The translations under genes were made by a program, and so were the position numbers. Below, piece by piece: positions 1-19,551 of a stretch of DNA of 32,000 nucleotides. This DNA is from an uncultured Clostridia bacterium. Lineage in GTDB: Bacteria; Bacillota; Clostridia; Christensenellales; Aristaeellaceae. The DNA is taken from positions 2,401 through 34,400 of the forward strand of contig CALCTW010000044.1 of the NCBI GenBank assembly GCA_937907055.1. The letters run 5' to 3'. Position 1 is the first letter of the stretch. Each line of letters opens with the position of its first letter. A model generated the notes under the pieces. That model was not told where the DNA came from. It was given only the letters and a program-made list of their open reading frames with translations, and searched no databases.

Positions 1-526
1 CGCGCGGCTTTGCTCCGGGTGTCAGGTTCAGGGAACGCTTCAGCGCGTATTCCAGCATTTTTTCCGCGGCGGTGTCCTCATCCTGTCCGAATGCCGAAAC
101 CGGCGCGATGTAGATATCCAGCACCGGGCGGTTCAGCCATTTTTCACGTGTACGGGCCTCCTGCTCGCAGTATTTCACCCCGAATACGCATTCGTAGGCA
201 AAATGCTCGCAGTTGTTGTGCAGCAGGCTGTATCCGTCTTCGCCGATCCGGGATCGTGCCGCGCGGATCGCCTTGTTCCGGTCCACACGGCGGAAGGGAT
301 CGCTCTTTTCCGGCTCGCCGATCTCAATGATCTGACCGCAGGAAAAGCTGTTGATATCCGTCACACAGACGCGGATCTCTTTTTCGTTCCGGTTCAGCGT
401 CTGCACCGGCGGCTCGCCGAACTGGATGATCTCATCGTCCGTCACGTACACGCCGTAATGATGGATCTGTCCCAGCGGAATGCGGATGATGTCACCGGCT
501 TTGCATTCGCCGGGCCACCATCTCAT
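1..526 (-). CDS. LRAT/PLAAT-like (NlpC/P60 superfamily) thiol acyltransferase/phospholipase domain protein. The 3' end lies outside the window, and the C-terminal extension is of unknown function.
   Basis: Manual reverse translation from ATG 526-524 gives MRWWPGECKAGDIIRIPLGQIHHYGVYVTDDEIIQFG...LLHNNCEHFAYEC. The H-box (HYGVYV) and the catalytic NCEHF motif are LRAT-family signatures. The frame stays open to position 1. The ATG overlaps the ACP stop (ATGA). It is absent from the ORF track because it runs off the window edge. Confidence 0.7.
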   Translation of the reverse strand, partial: MRWWPGECKAGDIIRIPLGQIHHYGVYVTDDEIIQFGEPPVQTLNRNEKEIRVCVTDINSFSCGQIIEIGEPEKSDPFRRVDRNKAIRAARSRIGEDGYSLLHNNCEHFAYECVFGVKYCEQEARTREKWLNRPVLDIYIAPVSAFGQDEDTAAEKMLEYALKRSLNLTPGAKPR

Positions 527-777
527 TTCACACGCTCCTGGATATAGGTCACGATATCGCCGATGGTCTCAAAGGTGTTGGCGGAGGCATCGTCGAAGAT
601 CGCGCCGAAGGTCTCTTCCATCGCGATCAGCACATAGAGCATCCCGGTGGAGGAGAGACCCAGCTCCGTGCGCACATTGGTCGCCTCCGTGCAGGTGCTG
701 ATCACCTGCGTATAGCGGCTGTCGGAGGACACCAGAATGTCCTTCAGCTGCTCAAAGATCTCATTTCTGTTCATCAC
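523..777 (-). CDS. Free-standing acyl/peptidyl carrier protein (ACP-like)
   Basis: 84 aa and acidic. It has an ACP helix-II-like motif, LGLSSTGMLYVLIAMEETFG, with a candidate phosphopantetheine serine. The start is GTG 777 or ATG 774, overlapping the upstream ligase stop. The stop is TGA. Confidence 0.8.
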   Translation of the reverse strand: MMNRNEIFEQLKDILVSSDSRYTQVISTCTEATNVRTELGLSSTGMLYVLIAMEETFGAIFDDASANTFETIGDIVTYIQERVK

Positions 778-2273
778 TTTTTCTTATACCTCAGGATCTT
801 CATGCTGGGGCTGCGTTCAAAATCCGTATCGCGGATCACGATGCGCGAAGCCCGGCAGTGAGAGGGGAGATTGCGGTTCACTTCTTCCAGCTGCGGCATC
901 AGGAAGGCGTTCACATCCGTCACGCCGCTCAGCTCGGTCGCGCGCGGTACTACTTCCAGCGCCAGAATGGTAATGCCGTTCTCGTTCACGTCCTCAAACA
1001 GCTGGCTGTCCTGCACCGCGGGCAGCTCGTTGAAATAGGCTTCCACCTCGGCGGGAGATACATTTTCGCCGTTCTCCAGCACAATGATCTCCTTGATGCG
1101 CCCGGTGATATACAGCAGGCCGTCCTCGTCAAAGCGCGCGAGATCGCCCGTGTGGAACCAGCCGTCCGCGTCGTAGGCCTTTTCCGGAGTGCCGCTGTAG
1201 GCGGTCAGCATATTATCGCCGCGCAGCAGCAGCTCTCCGTCCTCCAGACACAGCTCCTGGTTCGGGAAGGGCAGGCCCACGGAGGTCGGCTTGGCGGCAA
1301 ATTCCGGGTTGCCGGAAACCAGGTTGGCGCTCTCGGTCAGGCCGTAGCCGGGGAACAGGCTGATGCCGTATTTGCTGTATTCACTGATCAGATAGGGCGG
1401 CACAGCAGCCGCGCCGCAGATGATGGTGCGCATATCCGGCCCCAGCATCATGCGTCCGAATTTCTTGGAAAGGGACAGCGCCATGTCCGCCAGCGCGGGC
1501 ACCGCGATCCACATCGTGGGTCTGAAGGCTGCCGCGTCGCGGAACATCGCCTGCGGGCTGAGGCAGATGAACAGAGAACTGCCGGTATAGAAGGCCGCCA
1601 GTGTGCCGCGGATCAAGCCGAACACATGGGACATGGGCAGCGCCAGGATATAGCGCTGATCGAATACATCCTTGTAGCCGTAGCAGCCGTTGATCACGCC
1701 CTGCAGCACCGCGCGGTGGTTCAGCACAGCGCCCTTGCTGCGGCCGGTCGTGCCGCCGGTAAACATGATCACGCACTCGTCGGTGCCCTTCACATCGGCC
1801 GCCGGAACGGGTTCTTCCCGTTCGCTTCCTGTCATGCAGGGCACGCAGGTGATCGCCTGATCGCTTTCGGGGCCGACGACCGCCTTGCAGCCGAACATCT
1901 TCACCAGTCCCTCGATCGCCTGCACCGGCAGCTGAGCCGGCGCGATCGCGGCGGAGCATCCGGCAGAGGCCGCCGCCAGGAAGGCGACGATCAGGTTGTA
2001 GGAATTGGCCAGGTGCAGCAGCACACGGTCGCCCTTTTTCAGGCCTCTCTGGGCCAGCGCGCCGCGGAAGGCGGCGGTATCCTTCAGCAACTGCGCGTAG
2101 GTAAAGGCTTCGCCGTTATATTGCACCGCTTCGTGCTCGGCATAAGCTTCGCACCTTTCCAGCAGCTCCGGGATCGTGCTGATCTCGGTGATCTTATCAA
2201 ACACCTCCGCGGGGGCGTATTTCCGGAAGCTTTCACGGGAACCGCGGATGATAACGCGTTCTTCAGTGGACAT
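774..2273 (-). CDS. AMP-dependent synthetase/ligase (fatty-acyl-AMP / acyl-CoA ligase family)
   Basis: 499 aa. Adenylate-forming core motifs are present: FTGGTTGRSKGAVLNH (A3), GYGLTESA (A5), HTGDLARFDEDGLLYITGRIKE (A7/A8), and a C-terminal Lys in SMKILRYK. Confidence 0.9.
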   Translation of the reverse strand: MSTEERVIIRGSRESFRKYAPAEVFDKITEISTIPELLERCEAYAEHEAVQYNGEAFTYAQLLKDTAAFRGALAQRGLKKGDRVLLHLANSYNLIVAFLAAASAGCSAAIAPAQLPVQAIEGLVKMFGCKAVVGPESDQAITCVPCMTGSEREEPVPAADVKGTDECVIMFTGGTTGRSKGAVLNHRAVLQGVINGCYGYKDVFDQRYILALPMSHVFGLIRGTLAAFYTGSSLFICLSPQAMFRDAAAFRPTMWIAVPALADMALSLSKKFGRMMLGPDMRTIICGAAAVPPYLISEYSKYGISLFPGYGLTESANLVSGNPEFAAKPTSVGLPFPNQELCLEDGELLLRGDNMLTAYSGTPEKAYDADGWFHTGDLARFDEDGLLYITGRIKEIIVLENGENVSPAEVEAYFNELPAVQDSQLFEDVNENGITILALEVVPRATELSGVTDVNAFLMPQLEEVNRNLPSHCRASRIVIRDTDFERSPSMKILRYKKK

Positions 2274-2889
2274 AGTTTTTCAGGTTCTCCTCTTTTTCCT
2301 GCAGCAGGGCAGTGTATTTTTCGATTTCTCCGATGCCGGGCTTTTTGCCGTCCTCACCGGTCAGCACGAGCGGCTCACCGATCACGAACGTGGCACGGGA
2401 GAAGCGGTTTTTACGGGGCGCGATATACACGGGAATGATCGGGCATTCTCCCTGAAGGGCCATCAGGATGATCCCGGAATGGAATCCGCCGCCGGTGTCT
2501 CCGGTAATGCGGCCTTCGGGGAAGACGGAGATCAGCCAGCCCTCGCGCAGGCCTTTCGCGATCTCGCGGATGGTCTTCAGCCCCGGGTTCTCACGGTCCA
2601 GCGGGATGCACATAAAGTGTCCGAACAGCCAGCTCAGCCCGGGGGTGCGGAAGAATTCCTTCAGGCACACGAAGCGCTGGCGGCGATACCAGATGCAAAA
2701 CTGGAGATAGATCGGATCCAGGTGAGTCTGGTGATTGGAGCAGAGCAGCGCGCCGCCCCGGATCATCTTTTTCGCGGCTTTGTTTTCATAGATCCGCTTC
2801 GGTCTCATCCAGATGAGGCCGGGGATCGCCGCGGTCACCTTGGTAAAATCGTAAAACCAGTATTTCAGGCTGAACAGCTTATGCCCCAT
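2263..2889 (-). CDS. PlsC-type (lysophospholipid/1-acylglycerol-3-phosphate) acyltransferase
   Basis: 208 aa. HX4D motif NHQTHLD and FPEGR motif. Overlaps both neighbours by 11 nt. Confidence 0.85.
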   Translation of the reverse strand: MGHKLFSLKYWFYDFTKVTAAIPGLIWMRPKRIYENKAAKKMIRGGALLCSNHQTHLDPIYLQFCIWYRRQRFVCLKEFFRTPGLSWLFGHFMCIPLDRENPGLKTIREIAKGLREGWLISVFPEGRITGDTGGGFHSGIILMALQGECPIIPVYIAPRKNRFSRATFVIGEPLVLTGEDGKKPGIGEIEKYTALLQEKEENLKNYVH

Positions 2890-3511
2890 GGGTCGGTACC
2901 TCTCCCAATTCCATCACTTTTTCGCGCAGCAGACGGCTGCATTCGCGCACAGCCTGACGCGGATCCGCCGCGGGATCGCACATTCCTCTCAGATCAAGCG
3001 GCGCGCCGATCGTCACCCGGATGCCTTCCTTGCTGAAATACCGCCCGCTGATATACACCGGGATCACGGGCGCGCCGGTCTCCAGTGCCAGATAGGCAGC
3101 GCCTTCGCGGAAGGGCAAAGGCCGTTCCTCACCGGGCAGCGGCAGTCTTCCTTCGGGGAAAACGCCCACAAGGCCGCCCTTTTTCAGGATGGCCGCGCTC
3201 TTGTCAAGGCATGCTGTCGAATGCGCGTCGCGATCCACCCGGATTCCGCCCATCTGCTTCAGAAACAGCCCCAGACCGGGCCTTGTGAACAGGATCTCCG
3301 CCATCTGCACGCGGATGGTGCGTGTCCAGAAGGCAAACAGCAGCGCGGCGAAATCATAGACGTTTGTGTGATTGCTCACAACGATCGCGCCGCCCTTCGG
3401 ATACCGGCTCTGTTTTTCAGGCTCCGCGCGGCGCACGCGGATCTTCAGCAGCAGCTTTTCCACCGGCCACGCGGTGATCTTCACAAACCATTGAAATATC
3501 GTGATCAGCAT
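2879..3511 (-). CDS. PlsC-type acyltransferase, second paralog
   Basis: 210 aa. HX4D motif NHTNVYD and VFPEGRL motif. RBS GGGAGGG lies 6 nt before the ATG. Confidence 0.85.
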   Translation of the reverse strand: MLITIFQWFVKITAWPVEKLLLKIRVRRAEPEKQSRYPKGGAIVVSNHTNVYDFAALLFAFWTRTIRVQMAEILFTRPGLGLFLKQMGGIRVDRDAHSTACLDKSAAILKKGGLVGVFPEGRLPLPGEERPLPFREGAAYLALETGAPVIPVYISGRYFSKEGIRVTIGAPLDLRGMCDPAADPRQAVRECSRLLREKVMELGEVPTHGA

Positions 3512-5433
3512 GCGCCGCCCTCCCGGATCGTCTGCACCACCGCGTTCACGGTCGTCAGCTTCTGTTCGGTGCCGGAGGGCAGGGAAACACGGAATTCTTC
3601 CTGAATGGCTTCGGCGAGCACCAGATAATCCAGCGAAGATCCGCCCAGCAGGGTAAAGTAATCATCATCCGGGCCGATCGCGATCTCTCCGCGGGACAGG
3701 GAGATCCGGAACATCTCCGTCACTCTGTCAGTCAGCGGGTCGCCGCTGCCCTGAGCAGTCTTCACAGCGCCGGGCGTCCATACCGGCAGCTCGTTCTTTA
3801 TCAATCTGTCACGCACACGGGCGCGGCTGATCTTAAAGTCATTTTCAGCGGTCAGGTCGGCCCTTGTCATCACCACGCGGCTGATCTGTCCGTTCAGCCC
3901 GGCCGCGGCGATCTGCTCATGCACGCACTTTTCGGTCGCCTTCACCTGCTCGTCCGCGGCAAAGGGCGGCACCGCGCACACGAGGGTGGGCACCAGTCCG
4001 TGTCCGCCGATCAGGCACAGCTCGCGCACGCCCGCGGTCGCCAGCCGGGGCTCGATCAGGTTGGGGTTCAGGTTTTCGCCCGCGCTGCCGATCACCAGAT
4101 CATCGCCGCGCCCCTGCAAAAACCATTTTCCGTTTTCAAGGGCGGCCAGATCGCCGGTTTGGAACCATTCGTCTCCGCGGCGCGTCTCCTGTCCGTCCTG
4201 CAGGATCCTTCTCGCGGTGGAAGGTCCGCGCACCTCCAGCATGCCTTCCGGCGATACGCGGTATTCCACCGAGGACATCGGCGTGCCGATCGAGGGTCTG
4301 CAGCGGTCGGCGGCCTTCGCGCTCAGCTCCACGGAGGTGATGCCGATCTCCGACATGCCGTAGCCGTTGCACAGATAATAGCCCATGGCATTAAAGAAAT
4401 GCAGGGTCTCCGGATTAATGAAACTGCCGCCGGTGATCGTAAACAGCACGCTGTCGCCGAACAGGCTGCCGCGCACTTCCTTAAATAACTTTTTGCAGAT
4501 CGCTTCTCCGCCGGGCAGCTTCAGCAGTTTTTCGGAGAGCGCCAGTCCTTTCTTGAACTTGGCTTCGGTCTTTTCGCCGCGGTCGTGGATCGTCCGCAGC
4601 ACCTCGCTGTGGATCTTTTCCCAGAAGAGCGGCACCGCGAAAATGTGCGTCACCTTGTGACGGCGGATGGTGCTCAGCAGGGTCTGCGCGGAAAGGTCGT
4701 TCAGCAGCACGAAGGTCCTTGAGAAGAAGGAAAACCAGATATAGACCGCGATCAGCCCGAATACGTGATAGAACGGCAGGAAGGTCAGCAGCTTCAGTTC
4801 GCCTTCATAGTGCTGCTTGATCCGGTCATTCCGGCAGATGATATCATAACTGTCGCGGATCTGATGGCAGAACTGCTCCGCGCTGTAACAGCAGATCTTG
4901 ATGTGGGAGGAGGTGCCGGAGGACATCACCATCAGTTCGCTGCCAAATTCGCCCTTTTGCGCGGGCGTTTCGGCTTCGGAGATCTCTTCCTCCATGATCG
5001 TCGGGATGCTGAACTTTCGTCCGTCCGTGATCACGGCGATCGCGTTCGTGTCCTTCAGCGCTGTTTCCAGTGTCCCGTCATCCAGACGGGTATTCATCAG
5101 CAGCGGTCTGCAGCCGATCAGCAGGATGGCCCAGAAAAGCTGGATCCACGATACGCTGTTGTCCATATGCAGGCCGATCACGCTGTCCTTTTCGGGGTCG
5201 TTCAGCATGCTTTTCAGGGTTGCGGCGCGCTTTTCCAGCTGCTCACGGCATTCCCCGTAGGTGATCTTTTCGATCGTATAGCCGCGGCTACGTTCAAAGA
5301 ACGTGTTCCCGGCTTCGGAAAACATGGAATCATACAGGGAGGAAAAACGCTTGTCGCTGTTTTCAAAGGCTTCATATTTCTTCTGGACATAAGTATTTAC
5401 ATCCTTATATCCGCCGATGTTGGTCAGCTTCAC
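3505..5433 (-). CDS. Adenylate-forming enzyme fused to a C-terminal carrier (thiolation) domain (A-T didomain)
   Basis: 642 aa. Degenerate A3 motif SSGTSSHIKI, GYGMSEIG (A5), QTGDLA...GRGDDLVIGSAGENLNP (A7/A8). The C-terminal YFTLLGGSSLDYLVLAEAIQEEF is a carrier-domain GGxSL motif. GTG start is preceded by AAGGAGG at 7 nt. Confidence 0.85.
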   Translation of the reverse strand: MKLTNIGGYKDVNTYVQKKYEAFENSDKRFSSLYDSMFSEAGNTFFERSRGYTIEKITYGECREQLEKRAATLKSMLNDPEKDSVIGLHMDNSVSWIQLFWAILLIGCRPLLMNTRLDDGTLETALKDTNAIAVITDGRKFSIPTIMEEEISEAETPAQKGEFGSELMVMSSGTSSHIKICCYSAEQFCHQIRDSYDIICRNDRIKQHYEGELKLLTFLPFYHVFGLIAVYIWFSFFSRTFVLLNDLSAQTLLSTIRRHKVTHIFAVPLFWEKIHSEVLRTIHDRGEKTEAKFKKGLALSEKLLKLPGGEAICKKLFKEVRGSLFGDSVLFTITGGSFINPETLHFFNAMGYYLCNGYGMSEIGITSVELSAKAADRCRPSIGTPMSSVEYRVSPEGMLEVRGPSTARRILQDGQETRRGDEWFQTGDLAALENGKWFLQGRGDDLVIGSAGENLNPNLIEPRLATAGVRELCLIGGHGLVPTLVCAVPPFAADEQVKATEKCVHEQIAAAGLNGQISRVVMTRADLTAENDFKISRARVRDRLIKNELPVWTPGAVKTAQGSGDPLTDRVTEMFRISLSRGEIAIGPDDDYFTLLGGSSLDYLVLAEAIQEEFRVSLPSGTEQKLTTVNAVVQTIREGGAC

Positions 5434-5466
5434 CCTGCTGCCTCCTTGTTTTGTTTCTTTATCAGT

Positions 5467-6393
5467 TTATCGGGCCGGAACCGTTATCTGTTCCGTGAAT
5501 TCCCGGATGGCTTCTGTCAGGATCTGTTCCTCAGGGGTATCCGCGCCGTTTTCTTCCGGCAGCAGATCCGTATGCCGCGCGTTTTCGATCCTGCAGAGGA
5601 ATATCAGCGGATCCTCCCTGCCCGTGAGCGCCTTTCCCGTGCTTTCCTTTTCCGGCACGGTCTCGTCCATCCCGCTTTGAATGATCAGCACCGGTTTTCC
5701 GGAACTGATCAGCGCTTCCGATGCCTTTTCAAACGGAAGGCTGCCGTTTTGCAGGAACAACCCGCCCATCAGGAAAGGCGCGCCGGTGTAGACGACAGGC
5801 CCCGCGTATTTCAGGGCCGTCTCGAGCATCAGGCCGGAGACCGTCTCAAATCCGTTGATGCAGATAACTGCTGACACCGCTTCGTCCCGGCTCTCGATCG
5901 CTGCCGCCCAGCCTCCGGCGCTGTGGCCGATCAGCATGACCGGCATGCCGGCATAGCGGCTGCTCTTCAGCATGTCCAGCGCCGCTTTCGCGTCTACAGC
6001 CCGCTGTTGCAGGCTCATCACGCCGCTGCCCTCGCTTTTTCCGGTGCCTGTGCCGTCAAAGCACAGCGCGTCCCAGCCGGCTTCCGTCAGGATCCGCCCA
6101 AGGCCTGTCATGTCCGCTGCCCCGGCGTGAAAGCCGTGCAGGATCACCGCGATCCCTTTCGGCGTTTCAGCTTCGCTGTGCAGGATCCATCCCTGCAGCA
6201 TCCGTTCACCGGAGGGGAATGTGATCATTTCCGCGTCCGCGAAGAGGACCGGCGTGTCAGCCATCCTGTCATACCGGCTGAAATAGACCGTAAAAAAGAC
6301 AGCCACGCCTGCGGCTGAAAGGATGATCCATGTGCTGAGGAGGATGGCAAGCGCCTTCAGCCATCGGAAGCCCGTCTTTTTTCCGGCGTTCAT
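5467..6393 (-). CDS. Membrane-anchored alpha/beta-fold hydrolase (lipase/thioesterase-like)
   Basis: N-terminal TM segment LKALAILLSTWIILSAAGVAVFF, HG oxyanion motif ILHGFH, and nucleophile elbow GHSAGG. The ATG at 6393 is preferred (RBS CAGGAG 7 nt upstream). The ORF track extends it to a TTG at 6450. Confidence 0.8.
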   Translation of the reverse strand: MNAGKKTGFRWLKALAILLSTWIILSAAGVAVFFTVYFSRYDRMADTPVLFADAEMITFPSGERMLQGWILHSEAETPKGIAVILHGFHAGAADMTGLGRILTEAGWDALCFDGTGTGKSEGSGVMSLQQRAVDAKAALDMLKSSRYAGMPVMLIGHSAGGWAAAIESRDEAVSAVICINGFETVSGLMLETALKYAGPVVYTGAPFLMGGLFLQNGSLPFEKASEALISSGKPVLIIQSGMDETVPEKESTGKALTGREDPLIFLCRIENARHTDLLPEENGADTPEEQILTEAIREFTEQITVPAR

Positions 6394-6480
6394 ATCCATT
6401 CTCCTGTGATCCTTTGCCTTTTCATCAGGCGTTTTTTCCTGATCCGGCAAGGCTGTTTGCGTAGGAACATACCAAACACT

Positions 6481-6508
6481 ATTATATCACACATGACCTG
6501 TTTTGCAA
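6481..6508 (-). promoter_or_regulatory. Sigma-70/SigA-like promoter for the minus-strand lipid operon
   Basis: On the minus strand: TTGCAA, 16 nt spacer, TGATATAAT (extended -10). It lies about 90 nt upstream of the hydrolase start. Confidence 0.5.
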
Positions 6509-6717
6509 ATATAAATGCGTATTTCGTCAGCATTTCGTCCGCTTTCCGGCGCTTTGGTCCCCATCGAAGCGTCGCACCGTCCGCGTCTTTCCGCCCCCCC
6601 CGTCTCCCCGGGTGAAAGGGCATCGTTTTCCACTTTCTCGCTGTCCGGCATCTTCGTTTTTATCGTTTTTATCAGCCCGGCGCCTGTCCTTCTGCCCGGG
6701 GGTCGCGGCATCTTTGC

Positions 6718-6774: not shown

Positions 6775-7683
6775 ATGCCGGGATCAGGCCGCATCATTTA
6801 TTATCATCTGCCCGGGCTTTTTGAGTTTACCGATCTTTACCGGGTCTTCCTTCAGCTTTACCGGGATCACCGGGACTGGTTCTATGATGACTGCCGCATC
6901 GCCTCCATCTACGGGGCTCCGGCGGATTGCCTCTGGGGCGGCGGTCGGGTCGGCTTCGGGGACGCGGATCTGTCCTCGGTCCTTTCTCTCGTCCGGGAGC
7001 ACGGCATTTCCGCCCGTCTCACGTTCAGCAATTCTCTTCTGCGGCCATAGCATCTCTCAGATCCCCGTTGCAATCGTCTCTGTGAGTCTTTTCAGCACGC
7101 GGGCCCTGTTCAAAGCGGCATCATCGTCCATTCCGATCTTCTGCTTCAGTACCTGAAGCAACGTTATCCGGATTTTTACTTCGTATCCTCCACCACCAAG
7201 GTCCTTACCCGGTTTGAGGATCTCCGTTCAGAACTGGATCGTCCTGATTTCCGCTTTGTCGTTCCCGATTTCCGTCTCAATAAGGCCTTTGATCAGCTTT
7301 CCGCCCTGACAGACATGCAGAAAAGCAAGGTCGAATTCCTCTGCAATGAATGCTGCAGCATCTCCTGTCCGGACAGGAAAGCCTGTTATGAAAATGTCAG
7401 CCGCAAAAATCTGGGGGAGACATGCCCGGATCATCGCTGCGCCTCCCCGGATGCCGGTCAGGGCTATCGTTTTTCAAAAGCCATGCGGAATCCGTCCTTC
7501 ATCAGCCTGTTCGATATCCGTACGGTCTATCTTCCGCTCGGTTTTTCTCATTTCAAGATCGAGGGGCGCAGCCTCGGCAGCGCGGTCATTCTGGAATTCC
7601 TGCTCTATTATCTCACCCGCCCGGAATTCCATCTGCAGGTGCGTGAGGAGATCTATCTTGATAGCATGCTGGATCTTTTCTGA
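6775..7683 (+). CDS. Conserved Cys-rich protein, U32-peptidase-like (KIEGR motif), interrupted by one in-frame TAG at 7048-7050. Either a pseudogene or a recoded/read-through gene.
   Basis: ORFs 6718-7050 and 7315-7683 are in the same frame. The 88 codons at 7051-7314 are open with coding-like composition and contain no ATG/GTG/TTG. The only defect is the TAG. Motifs: FKIEGRS and the CNECCSISCPDRKAC cluster. The family assignment is tentative. Confidence 0.6.
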
Positions 7684-9161: not shown

Positions 9162-11876
9162 TCAGTTCAGCTTGATGCCGTACATGGCGGCATTGCCCTT
9201 GCTGCAGGTGCCGATCACCAGCACGTTCTTATATACCGCGGGGCTGCTCTGGATCGTTCCGCCCAGGTTCAGGGTGGAGATCTCCGCGCCGCTCACGCCG
9301 TCCAGCAGGTGCAGCACGCCGCTCTCGTCCGCCTGAATGATCCAGGCGTTCCCCAGCTCGTTGTACACAGCCACGGGGGAGGAGACAGCCGTCGTGGTCA
9401 GCTCGCGGGTCCAGCGGATCTTGCCGCTCTTCTTTTCAAAGGCCATCACAGCGCTTGTCTTGCCCTTGCCGGTCATGTTCACCGTGAAGATCACCAGGTC
9501 ATCGATCGCGTTTTCACCGATCACCGGGCTGGCTTTGCATCCGGCCAGTTCGCTGCTGTTGTAAACGCAGCTCACATCCGCTTTCCAGATCTCTTCGCCG
9601 GTCAGGGCGTCCAGACGGCGGATCACACACTTTCCGTCCTTCTTTAGGCGCTCATAGCAGGTCGTTCCGGTATACAGGCCCAGATTGCCGTCCTCGTCAA
9701 AGTCCAGCGCGATGCTGGCATCCGTATTGTCGCCGCAGTCCACCGCCCACACCGTATTCATGGTGGTGGTGTCCACGCAGCGCAGCAGGCCGTAGGTATC
9801 CGCCATGTACACATATCTGCCGTACATGGCCGCGCTGCTCTCAATTCCCGTGCGGTTGTCCTTCTGGGCGTTGGCCTTGCTCTTCAGGTACACCGTGTCG
9901 GCATTGATGGTCAGGTTCGTCGCGCCGGCAGGGAAGGTGGTATGCAGATCCACCGTGTACAGCAATCCGTTCTCGCCGCCGATGATCAGCGCGTCACCGT
10001 CCTCCTGGCTCAGGAACAGGCCGGTTCCGTCAAAGGCGCCGTTGGCGGAGTATTGTTCGTTCTGGCGGCCGTTCAGGAACAACAGCTGTTTCTGATCCAC
10101 CAGGTTGTATACATAGTATCCGATCGATCCGGTTTTGTTGGCCAGCTTGGAGACCGCCTGACCGATGCCCATGATCGGGCGGGAGTAGGGATCGACCGCC
10201 GCGCTGCTCTTCAGCGGGAAGCCGATATTGATGCAGTCGCGGGTCTGTTCGCCGGTCGTCAGGTCCAGGAAGTAGATCTTTCCGTCCAGCGCGCCGAAGA
10301 TCACTTCCTTCAGTCCCTGCTTTTCCTTTTTCGCGTCATACAGGTTCATGATGGCGCGTACATCGCCGGGCCACTTGATAATGGCGGGCTGTGTGCCCCA
10401 GCCGACACCGTACAGCGTGCCGTCGCTCGTCTTCAGGCTGCCCAGATCCTTCTTCCACAGGATCTCCATCTGTCCGGTCGTGATCTCCACGGTGCTGTAG
10501 GCGGCATTGCGGCGGAAGTTGTCGCCGCGGAAGGTGAAGATACCGTTATTCGCGTAGGTATAGTGGTTCGGGTCGGGCGCGTTGTAGGGCAGCTCACGGG
10601 TGAAGCCGGATTGCTTCTTTCCGCCCTTATAGATCGCCTGCAGCAGCTTCACCAGCGAGGGATCGGTCCGGCCGGTCACGGCGGCAGCGTCCAGCACAGG
10701 CATGGGGGTCGCGGTGGGATCCGGCACCTCGGTCGGTTCCGGGGTCTCGGTGGGATTGGGCGTCGGTACCTCCGTCGGCATCGGGGTGGGCTCCGGCGTG
10801 ATCATCTCCGTGGGGGCCGGGGTCGGCACTTCGGTCTCCGCCGGCGCGGGGGCTTCGGTCGGGATCGCGGTCGCGTTCGCCACGGGCACAAATCCGGAGG
10901 CGTTCACATCCTCGGGCTCCTCGGTCGGGGCAGCGGTGGGCACCATGGTCACAAATACAGGCGCCTGTGTCACAAAGGGCACTTCGGTCACGGGCGCGGC
11001 GGTCACCGGCGCTTCGGTCTCAACGGCATCCTTCACGATCACGCGGATGCGCGCGTTGGTGTCCTTCAGTTCGGTGTTCAGGTTCTCGCGGATCTGCACG
11101 CGGAAGTAGCCGTCATATTCGGCGGCCAGATACACTCGCACATCCCAGGTGCCGTTGTCACCGTTGGTGTAGGTGCCGATCACTTCGCCGGTCTGCTCGT
11201 AGATCAGGCGGATCTCCGCCACGGAGGCAGAGGTCTTCACCGTAAATTCCAGCGGCTGCGCGGTGGTGCAGCTCTCGTTGTTGCCCTTCGGGCAAACGAT
11301 CGTCACATTGGCGCTCGTATCCTGCGTGCTCACCTCCGGCGTGACCACGGGGGCGTTCACACCGTTTCCGGTCAGGTTGCTGAATTTTTCGCCGATGCCG
11401 TTTCCGGGCACCAGCACGAAGAAGGCGATCACCAGTCCCACGATCAGCGCGATCAGCATGGCGATCAGCACCTTGGGCCACACAGGGCTGTTATCCTCTT
11501 CCGGATAGTACGGAGGCGTGTTCTCCGGGGCGTATCCGCCGTCATCGTACGGCGAATAGGGGGATTCGCCCCTCGGCATCTCATATTCGTTTCCGTTCGC
11601 GCCGGGCTGCGGGCGTTCCGCGGGACGCTCAAAGCGCGTCGTGCTGCCGGGCGCGGCAGCGGAGGCGGGCTGGAAACGCACCGTTTCGCCGCCGGCATTG
11701 CCTGTCGGCATCCTGTCTCCGCGGTGTCTGATCGTTGTATCCGGCGCGGCGGGCATCGGCGGCACGTATTCGCGCGCCTCCGGCTGCTTCTCGGTGGATT
11801 TGATATATTGCTCGTGTTCGTTCCCTCTCATCCTGTTGGGATCGTACTGCGGGTTATAGTCATGCTTTTCGCTCAA
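9162..11876 (-). CDS. Single-pass membrane protein. Domains in order: disordered Pro/Tyr-rich cytoplasmic N-terminus, TM segment, Ig-like region, Pro/Thr-rich linker, and a PQQ-like (BamB-like) beta-propeller ectodomain.
   Basis: 904 aa. TTG start preceded by GAAGGAGGG at 7 nt. TM segment is VLIAMLIALIVGLVIAFFVLV. A PT linker of about 110 aa precedes a C-terminal region with repeated G-x-hydrophobic-Y/W strand patterns typical of PQQ-like propellers. The domain call is by eye. Confidence 0.75.
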   Translation of the reverse strand: MSEKHDYNPQYDPNRMRGNEHEQYIKSTEKQPEAREYVPPMPAAPDTTIRHRGDRMPTGNAGGETVRFQPASAAAPGSTTRFERPAERPQPGANGNEYEMPRGESPYSPYDDGGYAPENTPPYYPEEDNSPVWPKVLIAMLIALIVGLVIAFFVLVPGNGIGEKFSNLTGNGVNAPVVTPEVSTQDTSANVTIVCPKGNNESCTTAQPLEFTVKTSASVAEIRLIYEQTGEVIGTYTNGDNGTWDVRVYLAAEYDGYFRVQIRENLNTELKDTNARIRVIVKDAVETEAPVTAAPVTEVPFVTQAPVFVTMVPTAAPTEEPEDVNASGFVPVANATAIPTEAPAPAETEVPTPAPTEMITPEPTPMPTEVPTPNPTETPEPTEVPDPTATPMPVLDAAAVTGRTDPSLVKLLQAIYKGGKKQSGFTRELPYNAPDPNHYTYANNGIFTFRGDNFRRNAAYSTVEITTGQMEILWKKDLGSLKTSDGTLYGVGWGTQPAIIKWPGDVRAIMNLYDAKKEKQGLKEVIFGALDGKIYFLDLTTGEQTRDCINIGFPLKSSAAVDPYSRPIMGIGQAVSKLANKTGSIGYYVYNLVDQKQLLFLNGRQNEQYSANGAFDGTGLFLSQEDGDALIIGGENGLLYTVDLHTTFPAGATNLTINADTVYLKSKANAQKDNRTGIESSAAMYGRYVYMADTYGLLRCVDTTTMNTVWAVDCGDNTDASIALDFDEDGNLGLYTGTTCYERLKKDGKCVIRRLDALTGEEIWKADVSCVYNSSELAGCKASPVIGENAIDDLVIFTVNMTGKGKTSAVMAFEKKSGKIRWTRELTTTAVSSPVAVYNELGNAWIIQADESGVLHLLDGVSGAEISTLNLGGTIQSSPAVYKNVLVIGTCSKGNAAMYGIKLN

Positions 11877-12024: not shown

Positions 12025-13173
12025 TCAGTTTGTCCCGGCGCTTCTGTTCAGCATCACCAGCGCGCGGTTCAGGCTCGTGTCGTCATAGCTGTCCAGCGAA
12101 TAGATGAACAGCATGCTGTCGATCGTTTCCTCCGCCCCCAGCACATCGCCGATCGTCACCGAAGCCGGCAGATAACGGGTGTCCACTGCCACGATCCGCT
12201 TGTAATTCATCATCAGGAAAGGCAGCAGGCTGTTGGCAAAGCTGTCCTTCATCACAAACAGCGTGCCGTTTTCCGCGTTTTCATTCTCCAGCACGGTCAC
12301 ACCGTGGTTGCCGTCCAGATACACGGCATACATGTCATAGGTTTCGGCGCGTCCGGGGAAGATTACATGATCATAGGTTTCACCGTCAAAGGTCACTTTC
12401 ACGCTCGTTTTCGGTTCCGCCGCGCGGATCGTGTCGCTTACGCTCACGGGCAGTCCGCTTCTGGAGGCTGTCGTGCCCCGGAAGCCCGTATATTCCGTGA
12501 TCGTAAATGCATCCATGGCCGCCGCTGTCAGTCCGGTCTGTCCGCAGTAGGCTTCGTAGGCCGCGTACGCGCCCTCCAGCGTCCAGTGGTGATCGGTCAG
12601 GTAATACAGATCCTTTTCGCCTTCAAATAGCGGCTGCAGCTTCACAAAGCGCGGGTCATCCGTCAGCGCTGTGTACGCCGCGCGCTCCTCCTCAAACAGC
12701 GTTTGGCTCAGCGGCCCCATCCGGTCCGCCAATACCTCGCCGTGGGTCGGCGGTGTGATGAACGCGCAGCTTACACCGTACTTTTCCGCCATCCGGATCA
12801 GATTGTCCCGTGTCCGGCACAGCGTTTCCGCGTCCGCGTCCACAGGCTTCTCCACCAGGCTGTTTCCGGCGATCCACGCGCCCAGCTGGCTTCCGCGCCC
12901 TGTCGCCACATTATATACGGCATTCACGGATACCAGCGTGTCTCTTCCCGGCAGGTGATCGGAAAGATAGGTTTCCAGGTCATTGTTAAAGGTCCATTCA
13001 GTCAGGCTTTCCGGAGCCTTCAGCCCGGCCAGCGCGCGGCGTTCCCGGTCGGAAAAATCTTTTCCCGGCAGCACCAGCGTGCAGATCCCGATCACCAGCA
13101 GCAGGGGAAGCGCGCCGTAGGCGATGACCCGGTCCCAGACTGCTGATTTTTTCAGCTTCTTATCATCATCCAT
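12025..13173 (-). CDS. DHHW-family protein (AlgJ/AlgX/PatB-like SGNH-fold O-acyltransferase partner of MBOAT)
   Basis: 382 aa. N-terminal TM anchor, the motif YYLTDHHWT, and a downstream KDSFANS serine motif. Confidence 0.85.
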   Translation of the reverse strand: MDDDKKLKKSAVWDRVIAYGALPLLLVIGICTLVLPGKDFSDRERRALAGLKAPESLTEWTFNNDLETYLSDHLPGRDTLVSVNAVYNVATGRGSQLGAWIAGNSLVEKPVDADAETLCRTRDNLIRMAEKYGVSCAFITPPTHGEVLADRMGPLSQTLFEEERAAYTALTDDPRFVKLQPLFEGEKDLYYLTDHHWTLEGAYAAYEAYCGQTGLTAAAMDAFTITEYTGFRGTTASRSGLPVSVSDTIRAAEPKTSVKVTFDGETYDHVIFPGRAETYDMYAVYLDGNHGVTVLENENAENGTLFVMKDSFANSLLPFLMMNYKRIVAVDTRYLPASVTIGDVLGAEETIDSMLFIYSLDSYDDTSLNRALVMLNRSAGTN

Positions 13174-13185
13174 GCGGGTCTCTCC

Positions 13186-14535
13186 TTAGAATTGGAAGTA
13201 CACAAAAGGCGCGAAGCCCTCCGCCGCCAGCGCCGCCAGGCACAGCAGGAACAGAAGGATCGTCAGCACACGCTTCACCGGCATCGGCAGTTTGATCGCC
13301 GGGGCAAAGCTGATCCCGGCGCACACCAGCATCATCGGCAGGTAAGAAACACAGGTCAGCAGGGCTTTGGAACTGATGGGGGAGAAGGCGAAGATCGTTC
13401 CGGCCAGCTGTCCGCCGAAGCCGGAAAACAGCCCCCAGCCGATCACCACCAGCAAGAAGGTCACAGCCCTTCTCAGCAGGCGCGGGATCGCTTCATACCA
13501 GGCTTTTTTCAGCATGAACCGCTTCTCGATCATCAGCAGCGCCGCGAAGTAAAGTCCCCACAGCACATAGTTCCAGCCCGCGCCGTGCCACAGTCCTGTC
13601 AGCGCCCACACGATCAGAATATTCACATTTCTGCGCAGCACGCTGCACCGGCTTCCGCCCAGCGGGAAATACACATACTCGCGGAACCAGGTGGTCAGTG
13701 TCATGTGCCAGTGCCGCCAGAAGCCGGTAATGGAATCCTCGCGGTAGGGTCTGTCAAAGTTTTCAGGCAGCCGGAAGCCCATCGCTTCGCCAAGGCCCAG
13801 CGCCATGTCGGAATAGCCCGAAAAGTCAAAAAAGATCTGGAATGAGAATGCCAGAATGCCGATCACGGCGCCGATCGATCCGGCGCTCGCAAAATCGCCG
13901 TTGATCGTGCCCCACAGCCGTCCCATGGCGTCCGCCAGCAGCACCTTCTTGCCAAGGCCTACGGTAAATCGGGCCAGTCCGTGACGGATGCCCGCCGGGG
14001 TCACGTTTGCCGGGCTGTCCAACTGCGCCTCCAGGTCGGTATAGCGCACGATCGGGCCGGCTACCAGCTGGGGGAACAGTGTCAGATACACGCCGAAGCG
14101 GACGATGCTCCTTTGCGGCTTTGCCTGCCCGCGGTACACGTCGATCAGATAACTGATCCCCTGAAAGGTAAAGAACGAGATGCCGGCCGGCAGCACCGGG
14201 TCATCAAAAGCCATGCCCCAGCCGGTCAGGCCGCGCACGGTCTCAAGGAAAAACCCTGTGTACTTGTAATAGAGCAGCGGCAGCACATTCAAAATGATCA
14301 GCCCCGCCAGCACCGCCTTCCGCTGCTTTCCGCCGCGTGTCATGAACAGGGCTCCGGCCCAGTCCAGCACCAGCACGTACAAAAGCAGGATCAGCCACAG
14401 CGGCGATCCCCACGCGTAAAACAAAAGCGAGGCCGCTAATAAAAACGGCCTTTTCGCTTTTTGCGGCAGCAGCTTATGCCCCAGCAGCACCGCGGGCATA
14501 AACAGCAGCAGAAATGTAAAGGAACAAAACAGCAT
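13186..14535 (-). CDS. MBOAT-family membrane-bound O-acyltransferase (AlgI/DltB/PatA-like)
   Basis: 449 aa and polytopic. It shows an AlgI-like N-terminus (MLFCSFTFLLLF), FWRHWHMTLTTWFREYVYFPLGG, and WHG containing the conserved His. Confidence 0.9.
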   Translation of the reverse strand: MLFCSFTFLLLFMPAVLLGHKLLPQKAKRPFLLAASLLFYAWGSPLWLILLLYVLVLDWAGALFMTRGGKQRKAVLAGLIILNVLPLLYYKYTGFFLETVRGLTGWGMAFDDPVLPAGISFFTFQGISYLIDVYRGQAKPQRSIVRFGVYLTLFPQLVAGPIVRYTDLEAQLDSPANVTPAGIRHGLARFTVGLGKKVLLADAMGRLWGTINGDFASAGSIGAVIGILAFSFQIFFDFSGYSDMALGLGEAMGFRLPENFDRPYREDSITGFWRHWHMTLTTWFREYVYFPLGGSRCSVLRRNVNILIVWALTGLWHGAGWNYVLWGLYFAALLMIEKRFMLKKAWYEAIPRLLRRAVTFLLVVIGWGLFSGFGGQLAGTIFAFSPISSKALLTCVSYLPMMLVCAGISFAPAIKLPMPVKRVLTILLFLLCLAALAAEGFAPFVYFQF

Positions 14536-14551
14536 TCGTTTTTCTCTCCGG

Positions 14552-15073
14552 TCAGCGTCCCTGCAGCACGGCGCGGGTCTCTTCAGCCGCGTCGCTGCCC
14601 ACGATCAGCACCACGGTGTTGCCCTTGCGCTCCACCTTGGCCGCGCTCAGCAGCTTGTATTCATCGGGCAGGTAGTTCTGGGTCTCCTTCATGCGCTGAT
14701 TCAGGTATTTGTTCAGCGCGCTCTCGGCCTTGTCGGCAGCGGCGCTGTCATTGGCGGTCAGCACGATCACGCAGCGGGCGCTCACGCCGTCCTCGCTCTC
14801 AAAGTAGACGATCTCGCTGTAGCTTTCCTCCGTAAGACCGATCAGCTCGCAGATGATCGCGCCGGGGAATTCCACAATGCCGTCCGTGTTCTTCAGCGCG
14901 TCCTTCACCGCTGCAGGCTCATTCACCGCGGGCGCGCTCGTCGCTTCCGCGGGCGCGGCGGTCGCCGCGTTCTTTTCATCGGTCTTCGTGTTATTTCCGC
15001 AGGCGCACAGGCCGGTCATCAGCACCAGCAGCAGAAGCGCGCATCCAATACTCTTTTTCTTCATATCTTTCAC
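14552..15073 (-). CDS. Small lipoprotein (DUF4358-like, tentative)
   Basis: 173 aa. Signal sequence plus lipobox LMTGLCAC|G. Confidence 0.7.
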   Translation of the reverse strand: MKDMKKKSIGCALLLLVLMTGLCACGNNTKTDEKNAATAAPAEATSAPAVNEPAAVKDALKNTDGIVEFPGAIICELIGLTEESYSEIVYFESEDGVSARCVIVLTANDSAAADKAESALNKYLNQRMKETQNYLPDEYKLLSAAKVERKGNTVVLIVGSDAAEETRAVLQGR

Positions 15074-15082
15074 TTATCTCCT

Positions 15083-15844
15083 TTATTTCGGTTCCCAGCG
15101 CCCGGCATCCGCTTCGCTCCGGGCAAAGTCCAGCAGGCATTCCACCCACAGCTTCAGCCCGTCGTCGCCCAGGTGATACTTGCCGTCCGAGGAATAGCTT
15201 TCCTTCAGATAACCTTCCTCGTCCTTCAGCACCTCGGCGATCTCCAGATACACCGCGCCGTTCTTTTCGCAGGCAGCCTTCATGGCCACGTTGTATTTGT
15301 CCCACATCGTGCGGTAGTCTTTTTTCCGGCAGAACGCGCGTGTCACCGGGGTCAGGGACTGGAACACGATCACCGTCTCGGGGGAGGCTTCTTTGGCCAG
15401 CTCGATGATCCTTTCCACATAGCCGATCCCCTTGTCGATCGTCTCGCCGATATAGTCATTCACGCCCAGCAGGATGAACACATAGCGCGGCTTCAGCTGG
15501 CGGATGATGTTGGTCATCGTGCTCTCATCGCCGTTCAGGGTCAGGTTCACCGCGTCGCTCTGCAGGTATTTGCGGCTGGCGATATACAGCATATAGCTCT
15601 GCGCGGTAAAGAACCGTGTGCCTTTCATGAAGGCCGGGTCCTTCTTCTGCTGCTCCAGCACATACACGCGCAATTGTCTTGTGATCGAGTCGCCCACAAA
15701 AATGCAGTTGTCAAAGAAGGGATAAAGCGCCTCGTTACTCAGCCGTTGTATTGTGCTTTCTGTCTGCTCCTCCGCGTTCACACCCGGCAAAAGCAGCAGG
15801 ATCATCATCAGCGCCAGCAGCGCTGCAGTCAGGCGGTGCATCAT
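15083..15844 (-). CDS. Secreted SGNH/GDSL-family hydrolase or acyltransferase
   Basis: Block I is FVGDSITRQ, block III is LLGVNDY, and block V is DGKYHLGDDG. A signal peptide is present. The start at 15844 (MMHRL) is preferred, with RBS GGAAGGGGG upstream. The ORF track extends it to 15874. Confidence 0.8.
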   Translation of the reverse strand: MMHRLTAALLALMMILLLLPGVNAEEQTESTIQRLSNEALYPFFDNCIFVGDSITRQLRVYVLEQQKKDPAFMKGTRFFTAQSYMLYIASRKYLQSDAVNLTLNGDESTMTNIIRQLKPRYVFILLGVNDYIGETIDKGIGYVERIIELAKEASPETVIVFQSLTPVTRAFCRKKDYRTMWDKYNVAMKAACEKNGAVYLEIAEVLKDEEGYLKESYSSDGKYHLGDDGLKLWVECLLDFARSEADAGRWEPK

Positions 15845-16037
15845 GTTTTCCCCCTTCCGTTCAACGTGTTCCATTATATGCTTTGCTCCCCTTCTTTGTC
15901 AACCGCCGGGGGCGCTTCACCCCTTGCGGGAACGGCTTTTCTATGGTATCCTGCTCATAACGCATTCTGTTTTTTTACATTGTTAAGGGTCCGCGTTTCA
16001 TGCGCGTGATCCATGATCTATGAAAGGAAGTATTTCT

Positions 16038-17108
16038 ATGGCAGATCAGTTGGATATCTCTGTATCGTTCGATGCTTATGCCGGTGAACCGAACCGTGAC
16101 GGTCATCAGTTTGCTGTTCCGCTTCCGGACGGCCGTGTCCGGTTCCGTCTTCTCGCGAAGGACGCTTCTTCTGTCGTCATCGATCAGTTCGGCTCCCTCA
16201 CGCCCCTTTCTCCCGCGGGGGATGGCTACTGGGAGGGCATTGCCGATCTGGGCCGCGGCTTCAAGTATTTCTTCCTCAAGGTGGACGGGGCGGATGTCCT
16301 GTCTCCCTATCTGCCCATCGGCTACGGCTGCTGCCGTCCCATGAATTTTGTGGATGTCCCGGTCGAGGGCGAGGATTGGGATGCCCTCCTTCCGTCCATT
16401 CCGCACGGCGCGGTCACCCGTCATTATTATCCCTCCTCCGTCACCGGCCGGCTGGAGGTCTGCCTTGTTTACACGCCGCCCTGCTATGATCCCGCGAAAA
16501 AGTATCCCGTTCTCTATCTCCAGCACGGCTACGGCGAAAATGAGACCGGTTGGATCTATCAGGGGCATGCCGGGCGCATTGCCGATCAGCTCCTTCACGA
16601 AGGCGCCATGCAGGAAATGCTCATCGTCATGGGCAACGGCATGACGAAGATCGACGGCAGCGATGAACGCAATGTCTTCACCCGTGTCATCCTGCAGGAT
16701 CTGATCCCCTTCATTGAAAAGACCTATAATGTCCACACCGATAAATGGCACCGCGCTATGGCCGGTCTCAGCATGGGCAGTTATCAGACTTCTCTCGTCA
16801 CCATGTCCCATCCGGAGCTTTTCGGCTACGCCGGCATCTTCTCCGGTTTCATGCGCGCGCCCTGGGGCGGCGCGCCCGAGGCGCATCTGGCCATTCTGGA
16901 TGATCAGGCGCTTTTCTCCTCCAGCTATCGTGTTTTCTACCGCGCCATGGGCACGGAGGATATTTTCTTCGCGTCCTTCGCGGCAGATGATGAAATGCTT
17001 TCCGCCAAGTCGCTTCCCATCATCCGCCAGACCTTCCCCGGCGGCCATGATTGGAGCGTCTGGCGCCGCTGCATCCACGCCTTCCTGCCCCTTCTTTTTA
17101 AGGAATGA
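16038..17108 (+). CDS. Esterase-family alpha/beta hydrolase (CE1-like, feruloyl/acetyl-xylan-esterase-like) with an N-terminal Ig-like/E-set domain
   Basis: Motifs VLYLQHGYGENETGW and GLSMGSYQ (nucleophile), plus a C-terminal GGHDW. The start at 16038 follows RBS GAAAGGAAG at 7 nt. Confidence 0.8.
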   Translation: MADQLDISVSFDAYAGEPNRDGHQFAVPLPDGRVRFRLLAKDASSVVIDQFGSLTPLSPAGDGYWEGIADLGRGFKYFFLKVDGADVLSPYLPIGYGCCRPMNFVDVPVEGEDWDALLPSIPHGAVTRHYYPSSVTGRLEVCLVYTPPCYDPAKKYPVLYLQHGYGENETGWIYQGHAGRIADQLLHEGAMQEMLIVMGNGMTKIDGSDERNVFTRVILQDLIPFIEKTYNVHTDKWHRAMAGLSMGSYQTSLVTMSHPELFGYAGIFSGFMRAPWGGAPEAHLAILDDQALFSSSYRVFYRAMGTEDIFFASFAADDEMLSAKSLPIIRQTFPGGHDWSVWRRCIHAFLPLLFKE

Positions 17109-17290
17109 CCGGGCCTGCGCTCTGCTTCTGTCCATCAGCGGCTGTGTCTGCATTCACCTTTTTTGGATGCCGTATCTTCCGCGTCCCGCGTGATCCACAG
17201 GTTCGGGCGCGCGCGTCACGCTCTGCTGTCTGGTATCAGCTTCAGTCATGACGCGTGACGGGGTATGAGCATTTTCCGGTCAACACCCTG

Positions 17291-17318
17291 TTGCGTGCCC
17301 TCTTTTCTGTGGTATACT
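17291..17318 (+). promoter_or_regulatory. SigA-like promoter with extended -10 for the rph operon
   Basis: TTGCGT, 16 nt spacer, TGGTATACT. Confidence 0.5.
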
Positions 17319-17404
17319 GTAGTCGAAAATCGGAATCTTTCCCGTCTGCCGCCGTTCTGGTCCGGCGTCCTTCCGGGATCGTCTGTTATAAAAGGAGAAT
17401 GATT

Positions 17405-18712: not shown

Positions 18713-18726
18713 GGAGGGGCCTTCCC

Positions 18727-19191: not shown

Positions 19192-19297
19192 CACACGGCA
19201 GGGGAGAGATCTTCTTTGGATCCGTGCCATCCGCGTCCGAGCATACTTCCCTTTCCGCTTTTTTCCGTTGTTCCCTGTACCGATCAAAAGCAAAAAT

Positions 19298-19327
19298 GTG
19301 TCCGGCAGCGTGTCGGGCACATTTTTT
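19298..19327 (+). terminator. Rho-independent terminator of the rph operon
   Basis: GTGTCCG-gcagcgtgt-CGGGCAC stem (one G-U pair) followed by ATTTTTT. Confidence 0.65.
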
Positions 19328-19551
19328 ACATCTGTACTCTACCACACTTTGGAGTGACCTGCAATGAACCTCTGCTGACTTTTTCTATCCTTTTCTATCC
19401 TTTGTTCAACCTCTTCGCGCCTTTTGTGACCTTTACTGACCTGATTTAATATTTTTGTAACATTTAACGGCGCTCTCTCTTTTTTCGCGCCTCGGCCGCC
19501 TGTTTTCCGCGCTGTTTTTTCGCGAAAAAGCGCCTTCTCCTCCGTCACGGG

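Follow-up and report, generated by a model that had tools for sequence, protein, structure and literature searches.

A conserved operon of uncultured gut and rumen Clostridia pairing adenylating enzymes, carrier proteins and PlsC-type acyltransferases with an LRAT-phosphopantetheinyl transferase fusion protein: a putative lipid reacylation system

In Escherichia coli Aas a PlsC-family acyltransferase is paired with an ANL-type acyl-ACP (acyl carrier protein) synthetase, and these act on lysophospholipids. A stand-alone adenylating enzyme that loads a small dedicated carrier, the cargo of which passes to a membrane acceptor, is also found in DltA/DltC and in the acid:ACP ligase, ACP and lysophospholipid acyltransferase of aryl-polyene and xanthomonadin systems, while mammalian PLAAT/HRASLS/LRAT enzymes deacylate phospholipids via an acyl-cysteine intermediate, and the FakA kinase and DegV-family FakB binding proteins of Firmicutes deliver acyl-phosphate to PlsY or PlsX. 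Analysis of 32,000 nucleotides from an uncultured Clostridia bacterium of the Aristaeellaceae (assembly GCA_937907055.1, contig CALCTW010000044.1, positions 2,401 to 34,400 of the forward strand; this whole stretch is referred to as the window) revealed at its left edge an operon encoding two adenylating enzymes, two carriers, two PlsC-type acyltransferases and an LRAT-domain protein. The reading preferred here, which is given about an even chance of being correct, is that the operon would constitute a membrane-associated, carrier-protein-dependent system of lipid reacylation or remodelling, a disassembled and duplicated relative of Aas/LplT.

Regarding the layout, positions 1-6450 of the window (open reading frame (ORF) coordinates) contain seven genes, all on the minus strand, in agreement with the seven co-directional genes of the original prediction. 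In the descriptions below, PPTase stands for 4'-phosphopantetheinyl transferase:
1..526, minus strand: 5' part of the LRAT-PPTase fusion gene (LRAT/PLAAT domain and start of the Sfp-like domain; PF04970, 5e-18)
523..777, minus strand: free ACP of 84 aa (NCBIfam ACP models 3e-11, below cutoff)
774..2273, minus strand: ligase, a canonical ANL acyl-AMP-forming enzyme of 499 aa (AMP-binding 3.5e-57)
2263..2889, minus strand: PlsC2, an Aas-type PlsC-family acyltransferase of 208 aa with FPEGRIT (PF01553, 1e-21)
2879..3511, minus strand: PlsC1, a PlsC-family acyltransferase of 210 aa with HX4D and PEGR (PF01553, 1e-22)
3505..5433, minus strand: A-T, an adenylating enzyme with a fused carrier (thiolation) domain, 642 aa (AMP-binding 1.7e-34, PP-binding 5e-6)
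5467..6450, minus strand: hydA, an alpha/beta hydrolase of 327 aa with one transmembrane anchor and the GHSAGG serine nucleophile (Pfam Hydrolase_4, 7e-15)
6481..6509, minus strand: promoter-like site TTTGCA-17-TATAAT with TG, immediately 5' of hydA (consensus scan only)

Between A-T and the LRAT gene each gene overlaps the next by 4-11 nt, the ligase stop codon overlapping the ACP start, and hydA is separated from A-T by a 33-nt gap; these genes form a tightly packed, translationally coupled operon. The promoter-type consensus scan of the region returned 14 sites where 3.7 were expected, and no Rfam elements were detected near the operon. Pfam recovered the domains named in the original prediction, with the exception of the free ACP, which falls under the Pfam cutoff (18.3 vs 20.8 bits) yet matches the NCBIfam ACP models and has its carrier serine kept in 77/77 orthologues, and all of the motifs quoted (GHSAGG, GGSSL, HX4D, FPEGR and SSGTSSHIKI) are present, as is NCEHF. 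No condensation, ketosynthase or thioesterase domain was found in the 13 operon genes or in the families conserved across related loci, which sets the operon apart from nonribosomal peptide synthetase, polyketide synthase and fatty acid synthase systems and bears out the view that it is not a classical member of any of these. That it does not correspond to a described pathway also held: no operon gene in the window reaches an NCBIfam equivalog cutoff, and a literature search found no description of the cluster or of the LRAT-PPTase fusion.

The LRAT-PPTase gene starts with an ATG at 526-524 and its reading frame leaves the window at position 1, so that the predicted extent of 1-6450 was right for the genes inside it and incomplete as an operon. 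Related contigs and loci compared with the window are given L-numbers (L001, L006, L045 and so on). Exact-sequence look-up yielded contigs for PlsC2, LeuD and P0241 only, and none for A-T, the ligase, LeuC2 or the x2 ORF; through PlsC2 it recovered L001 and L002, two contigs from metagenomes that belong to the same species; L001 is 97.9% identical to the window across 6422 nt without gaps. The sequence left of position 1 could be followed in these contigs, where the operon continues with five or six more genes: the LRAT-PPTase protein has a full length of 308 aa (L001), and 3' of its gene lie hydB (a second transmembrane-anchored hydrolase), DegV/FakB, FakA, hydC (a third transmembrane-anchored alpha/beta-fold protein) and a zinc-ribbon/DUF4190 membrane protein, after which the cluster terminates at a divergent glutamate dehydrogenase gene. 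The original list of seven genes was therefore accurate as far as it went and overlooked the Fak module, a Cys-type hydrolase and, in relatives, an MFS_2 transporter.

Co-conservation of the genes in related Clostridia, which the original prediction had named as a point to check, is extensive. In a scan of one genome per species at least 501 loci encode a relative of the fusion protein, and the locus counts given here refer to the best 80 of these, all from uncultured gut or rumen Clostridia (Oscillospiraceae, Ruminococcus, Christensenellaceae, Butyrivibrio, Scatosoma, Coproplasma and others), the species of the window not being among them. A tblastn search of these loci with the 13 operon proteins detected A-T in 79/80, the ACP in 77/80, the ligase in 76/80, PlsC2 in 74/80 and PlsC1 in 72/80, followed by DegV (50/80), hydB and hydC (49/80 each), FakA (47/80 for the N-terminal/middle part, 41/80 for the C-terminal part) and hydA (41/80, its position varying). 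The six-gene core of A-T, two PlsC genes, ligase, ACP and LRAT-PPTase has the same order in 72-79 of the 80 independent loci, an arrangement far beyond chance, and the full fixed order is A-T, PlsC1, PlsC2, ligase, ACP, LRAT-PPTase, hydB, DegV, FakA, hydC and DUF4190. Catalytic motifs are conserved throughout the cluster proteins. When all ORFs of the 80 loci were clustered de novo, an MFS_2 (GPH-type) transporter emerged as the sole further conserved family. Homologues of A-T fall into at least 2249 clusters, named merely 'AMP-binding protein'.

Regarding the LRAT-domain protein, its assignment as an LRAT/PLAAT-type enzyme was correct for the LRAT domain (PF04970 at 65.9 bits against a gathering threshold of 24.3) and missed the second half of the gene product, which is Sfp-like. 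Of 123 homologues found 120 were listed, and most of those contain both PF04970 and PF01648 (the 4'-phosphopantetheinyl transferase family) in proteins of 325-350 aa, and a profile built from 30 members of the fusion family detects Sfp at 7e-13 and the human PLAAT/HRASLS proteins at about 3e-9. The AlphaFold model of the 308-aa protein from the window's species (predicted local distance difference test score, pLDDT, of 89) was compared by Foldseek: the N-terminal half matches PLAAT3 (E 4e-7, target-normalised TM-score 0.81) and the C-terminal half matches Sfp 4mrt (E 8e-5), the Sfp fold being retained. In the LRAT half, His23 and Cys106 of the NCEHF motif are invariant and Gln35 is nearly invariant across the family, the spacing of Gln35 and His23 equalling that of His35 and His23 in PLAAT3. 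The fold, the NCEHF cysteine motif and His23 are thus common to this protein and the mammalian enzymes; in contrast to the latter, the operon protein is bacterial, is encoded in a carrier-protein operon, has glutamine instead of histidine as third triad residue and has an Sfp-type PPTase domain where PLAATs have a C-terminal membrane helix. Its relatives keep the GxD.E and WxxKES.xK motifs of Sfp-type PPTases, which themselves are not fused to an LRAT domain, and the metal-binding and catalytic motifs PVGVDIE and WTxKESxFK are present in 52-55 of 62. In the window's species these motifs are replaced by GIAIG and LKKRCLFDE, with D to A and E to G changes in the metal site, loss of the WxKE motif and deletion of a 23-residue segment, and no Pfam match to PF01648 was obtained for the protein; its Sfp-like domain is almost certainly no longer a PPTase. 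In nine related loci (L049, L052, L063 and six others; match at about 10001-10420) a stand-alone LRAT protein of about 141 aa replaces the fusion, and proteins of this form, lacking the PPTase half, are seen in Butyrivibrio and in certain other lineages. A search of plasmids turned up no homologue of the LRAT-PPTase protein.

The two adenylating enzymes retain their signature motifs, with A3-A10 and the carrier serine of A-T conserved in 64/64 and the ligase core motifs in 73-74 of 74 homologues. Both contain the LPxxHxxG form of the A4 motif, which is of the acyl-CoA-synthetase type and points to carboxylic or fatty acid substrates, and the ligase is probably an acyl-ACP synthetase. The atypical A3 motif of A-T had been taken as a hint of a non-standard substrate; this argument was rejected, as the variant SSGT[ST]..[VI]K is a family-wide trait (63/64) of the P-loop, which binds ATP and so says nothing on the acid. 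With respect to the acyltransferases, the H, D, PE and R residues of PlsC1 are invariant in 68/68 and HX4D of PlsC2 is conserved in 72/72 homologues; the HX4D and block II-IV motifs are intact in both, and these include the (V/I/L)DR block that typifies lysophosphatidic acid (LPA) acyltransferases (LPAATs). PlsC1 matches the TmPlsC structure 5kym at 1.6e-9.

The analogy with E. coli Aas drawn in the original prediction corresponds to a real similarity. PlsC2 aligns with the N-terminal acyltransferase domain of Aas (28% identity over 121 aa, E 1e-7, identical FPEGRIT) and the ligase with the synthetase domain (30% identity over 279 aa, E 2e-26), the order of PlsC2 then ligase is the domain order of Aas, and their combined length is 208+499 = 707 aa vs 719 aa. 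The best NCBIfam match of both PlsC proteins is to positions 409-555, the acyltransferase segment, of the MFS-PlsC-AMP (LplT-Aas) fusion model NF006386 ('acyl-[ACP]--phospholipid O-acyltransferase'). This collinearity and similarity lend support to the 'disassembled Aas' reading; PlsC2 and the ligase, whose genes are adjacent and overlap, amount to a split Aas with a private ACP encoded next. A-T and PlsC1 form a second pair, its order reversed relative to Aas. The cluster and Aas share the pairing of a PlsC-family acyltransferase with an ANL acyl-ACP synthetase and, in most relatives of the window cluster, a transporter gene in the same operon. The cluster differs from Aas in that its components are each encoded by a gene of their own and are present in duplicate (the second A-T plus PlsC1 pair), in using dedicated carriers (the fused thiolation domain and private ACP) in place of the housekeeping ACP, and in the addition of the LRAT-PPTase protein, three alpha/beta-fold proteins and FakAB, while the transporter of relatives is MFS_2 and not LplT-like, none being encoded at the window locus.

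The MFS_2 gene is carried by 52/80 loci and lies within the cluster in 48/80, at one of two sites: flanked by DegV and FakA in 31 loci, and by A-T and PlsC1 in 17. Examples are L006 12910-14274 and L021 5067-6956, with 50 other loci; where the gene is placed between A-T and PlsC1, its product is longer at the C-terminus by about 170 aa. No sequence match of MFS_2 to a PDB chain was found.

The Fak and hydrolase module is present in about 41-50 of the 80 loci. DegV scores 188 bits against TIGR00762, above cutoff, and the FakA homologue (YloV/FakA), encoded outside the window in L001, is a Dak2/FakA_M/FakA_C kinase; matches of FakB1 and FakA are under the equivalog cutoffs. The window operon, like the FakA/FakB systems of Firmicutes, thus has a DegV-family binding protein and a FakA-type kinase, and it differs from the known Fak systems in having neither PlsY nor PlsX in the cluster, in the adenylating enzymes present alongside and, in the window's species, in an in-frame TAG within FakA. 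The hydrolases have N-terminal transmembrane anchors and weakly resemble monoglyceride lipases and esterases. In hydA, which shows weak similarity to PDB entries for monoglyceride lipases, the serine of GHSAGG is conserved in 32/32 orthologues and the transmembrane helix is at 34-52; the distribution of K/R around the helices, which is weak evidence, would place hydB and hydC on the cytoplasmic side and hydA outward. In the third protein, a member of the Hydrolase_4 family, the nucleophile elbow is occupied by Cys without exception (41/41) and a His is likewise invariant, which suggests a thioester-forming transferase rather than a hydrolase:
L001 10485-11423: hydC, transmembrane-anchored Hydrolase_4-family protein with Cys at the nucleophile elbow (HG[IV]CIG)

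From these domains and their arrangement we infer the substrates, the acceptor, the pairing of the components and the direction of the LRAT reaction as follows. Both ANL enzymes would adenylate free fatty (or other aliphatic carboxylic) acids, A-T loading its own fused carrier domain and the ligase loading the adjoining free ACP as an acyl-ACP synthetase pair. The two monotopic PlsC enzymes would move the carrier-bound acyl groups to lyso-type lipid acceptors at the membrane, with PlsC1 partnered with the neighbouring A-T and PlsC2 with the neighbouring ligase as a split Aas; two positions of one backbone might be filled in this way, as was originally proposed. The Cys-His PLAAT/LRAT domain and the membrane-anchored alpha/beta hydrolases may represent the deacylation or transacylation half, yielding lysolipids and free acids, a role likewise suggested in the original prediction, and downstream DegV/FakB and FakA could pick up fatty acids, whether released or exogenous. 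In most relatives the fused Sfp-type domain would convert both carriers to the holo form and MFS_2 probably imports or flips the acceptor. In the window's species the Sfp-like fold may merely dock the carriers, and with the PPTase active site lost, their activation would rely on another PPTase. A bolder version of the scheme, considered unlikely, is a carrier-based bacterial Lands cycle with a novel entry step, in which the PLAAT/LRAT domain would take an acyl chain off a membrane phospholipid as acyl-Cys and hand it directly to the holo-carrier docked on the Sfp(-like) domain, giving ATP-independent acyl-ACP from lipid, after which the two split-Aas triads would install different, exogenous chains; alternatively the machinery might build an undescribed class of acylated lipids abundant in gut and rumen Clostridia.

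Several observations weigh against a reacylation system of this kind. The PPTase half is catalytically degenerate in the window's species, A-T (weak similarity to Aas, 7e-4) and PlsC1 resemble Aas weakly, and the PlsC proteins score 59-69 bits against a cutoff of 1221, with 19-21 bits vs 886 also obtained among the Aas-type equivalog models compared (NF006386, NF005959, NF005291); scores so far under cutoff mean that the operon genes are not filed as Aas orthologues. MFS_2 is unrelated in sequence to LplT and no MFS gene is present at the window locus (window and L001), no conserved glycerolipid head-group or backbone gene was found in the cluster among the families across the 80 loci, and there is no clear need for kinase-type (Fak) and adenylate-type activation together. 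A rival reading, considered rather unlikely, is a dedicated cluster producing an unusual lipid or lipidated metabolite, by head-group acylation (acyl-phosphatidylglycerol, N-acyl-phosphatidylethanolamine or short-chain acyl esters) or as an estolide- or wax-like ester, for which the two adenylating enzymes would pick two different acids. Two divergent adenylating enzymes with separate carriers do suggest two acyl donors, mammalian PLAATs, the type to which the LRAT domain belongs, make N-acyl-phosphatidylethanolamine, the invariant elbow Cys of hydC (41/41) recalls thioester-forming alpha/beta-fold transferases such as polyhydroxyalkanoate synthases, and an own Sfp-type PPTase is a property of secondary-metabolite clusters. 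Rumen Butyrivibrio lipids have been reported with short-chain acyl esters, which may offer a parallel. Lysophospholipid acceptors are nevertheless indicated by the similarity to and collinearity with Aas and also by the association with FakAB salvage, and apart from MFS_2 there are no conserved tailoring, backbone-forming or export genes.

A housekeeping function is considered improbable, somewhat more so than an unusual-lipid cluster and about on a par with the Lands cycle. Here, Clostridia in which type II fatty-acid synthesis (FASII) is weak or lacking would make phosphatidic acid de novo from fatty acids that they scavenge, with one PlsC serving as glycerol-3-phosphate acyltransferase and the other as LPA acyltransferase, fed by acyl-carriers made by adenylation. 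The two PlsC enzymes with their intact HX4D, block II-IV motifs and LPAAT-typical (V/I/L)DR would suit these tasks, the cluster has its own ACP, PPTase and FakAB, and many hosts are uncultured, gut-restricted taxa. Its content is, however, variable (Fak in about 60% and MFS in about 65% of loci, ligase and ACP missing in a few), as expected of an accessory system, and the PPTase is degenerate in the window's species. PlsC2 is nearer to the Aas reacylation domain than to the cutoff of the PlsC (LPA acyltransferase) model TIGR00530, which at 102.95 is not reached by either PlsC (64.5 and 62.8 bits). In L045 a canonical PlsX gene is found at a distance of 9 kb, which shows that at least one genome has the standard pathway as well as the cluster; the search for FASII and PlsX genes covered the locus flanks and gave one PlsX in 1.4 Mb. 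Least probable by a wide measure is a Dlt-like acylation of an envelope polymer or protein from carrier-bound acyl groups (lipoprotein N-acylation or teichoic-acid esterification), to which the DltA/DltC-like architecture of ligase (499 aa) and small carrier (84 aa) would lend itself, and for which a possible precedent is the lipoprotein N-acylation in staphylococci, in which an enzyme of the NlpC/P60 superfamily (LnsA) takes part. The cluster would share with DltA/DltC and the aryl-polyene/xanthomonadin enzymes the logic described at the outset, and has no MBOAT, DltD, ketosynthase, ketoreductase or dehydratase genes; its transferases are PlsC-type and not MBOAT or DltD, the A4 motifs are of the acyl-CoA-synthetase and not the amino-acid type, no conserved polymer-synthesis genes are nearby, and a separate MBOAT/DHHW module is present elsewhere in the window.

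Three conserved genes of this bacterium contain one in-frame TAG each, with frame and motifs intact on both sides:
L001 9736-9738, plus strand: TAG in FakA (Gln in 37/37 homologues; flanking HNE motif intact)
18799-18801, plus strand: TAG in a YfcE-type phosphoesterase (catalytic motifs on either side)
7048-7050, plus strand: TAG in a protein of about 311 aa with no Pfam family (conserved gene)

Contig L089 has the phosphoesterase TAG too, flanked on either side by synonymous differences. At the sites in the phosphoesterase and the ~311-aa protein the closest homologues have Glu and the distant ones include Gln; Gln is favoured because it alone fits all three sites, pointing to decoding of TAG as Gln (or to readthrough) in this organism, unless all three genes are pseudogenes. 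A split or decayed FakA was considered and rejected, as the 'split' consists of one in-frame TAG at an invariant Gln. None of 32 genes has a TAG terminator; this was rejected as evidence of recoding, since TAG accounts for only about 5% of stops in related loci and its lack is not significant. A fourth in-frame TAG near 19341 was rejected as part of a shadow ORF, and a scan for more in-frame TAGs based on GC3, the G+C content of third codon positions, gave output too noisy for use. Recoding of TAG to Gln is documented in gut phages; a single literature search on this point found no report of it in a bacterial chromosome.

Regarding other features of the window, a separate O-acylation module of the Dlt/Alg/Pat-like type is encoded 6 kb from the operon, at 12025-15874 on the minus strand, with genes for a DHHW/AlgX-like SGNH protein, an MBOAT, a DUF4358 protein and a GDSL lipase, and is followed by an esterase (PF00756) at 16020-17108 on the plus strand. 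A 485-aa ORF at 17255-18712 on the plus strand encodes an RNase PH fused to a Ham1/RdgB-type NTP pyrophosphatase, and two tandem sets of aconitase-family subunit genes (LeuCD/HacAB-like) occupy 27633-31117 on the plus strand:
27633-28106 and 29374-29862, plus strand: aconitase-family small subunits
28111-29361 and 29876-31117, plus strand: aconitase-family large subunits

Several long ORFs at 15975-21030 and at 31135-31914 on the minus strand are shadows of plus-strand genes, with a GC3 of about 0.6 vs 0.75-0.83 in real genes; in sequence of 58% GC, ORF lists need a check of G+C content at all three codon positions (GC1/GC2/GC3).

The handling of dietary and host lipids by strictly anaerobic gut and rumen Clostridia is poorly understood, and the lineages bearing the cluster are mostly uncultured. 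If the operon is indeed a lipid reacylation or remodelling system, it would constitute a new route for the incorporation of exogenous fatty acids, a conserved module in roughly 500 or more species, combining adenylation, private carriers, PlsC-type transferases, a PLAAT-PPTase fusion, a Cys-type alpha/beta-fold enzyme and a fatty acid kinase. Two of its protein families, the LRAT-PPTase fusion and the membrane-anchored Hydrolase_4 proteins with a Cys nucleophile, have no function described so far, and membrane lipids or lipid mediators visible to the host could result from the activity of such a route.

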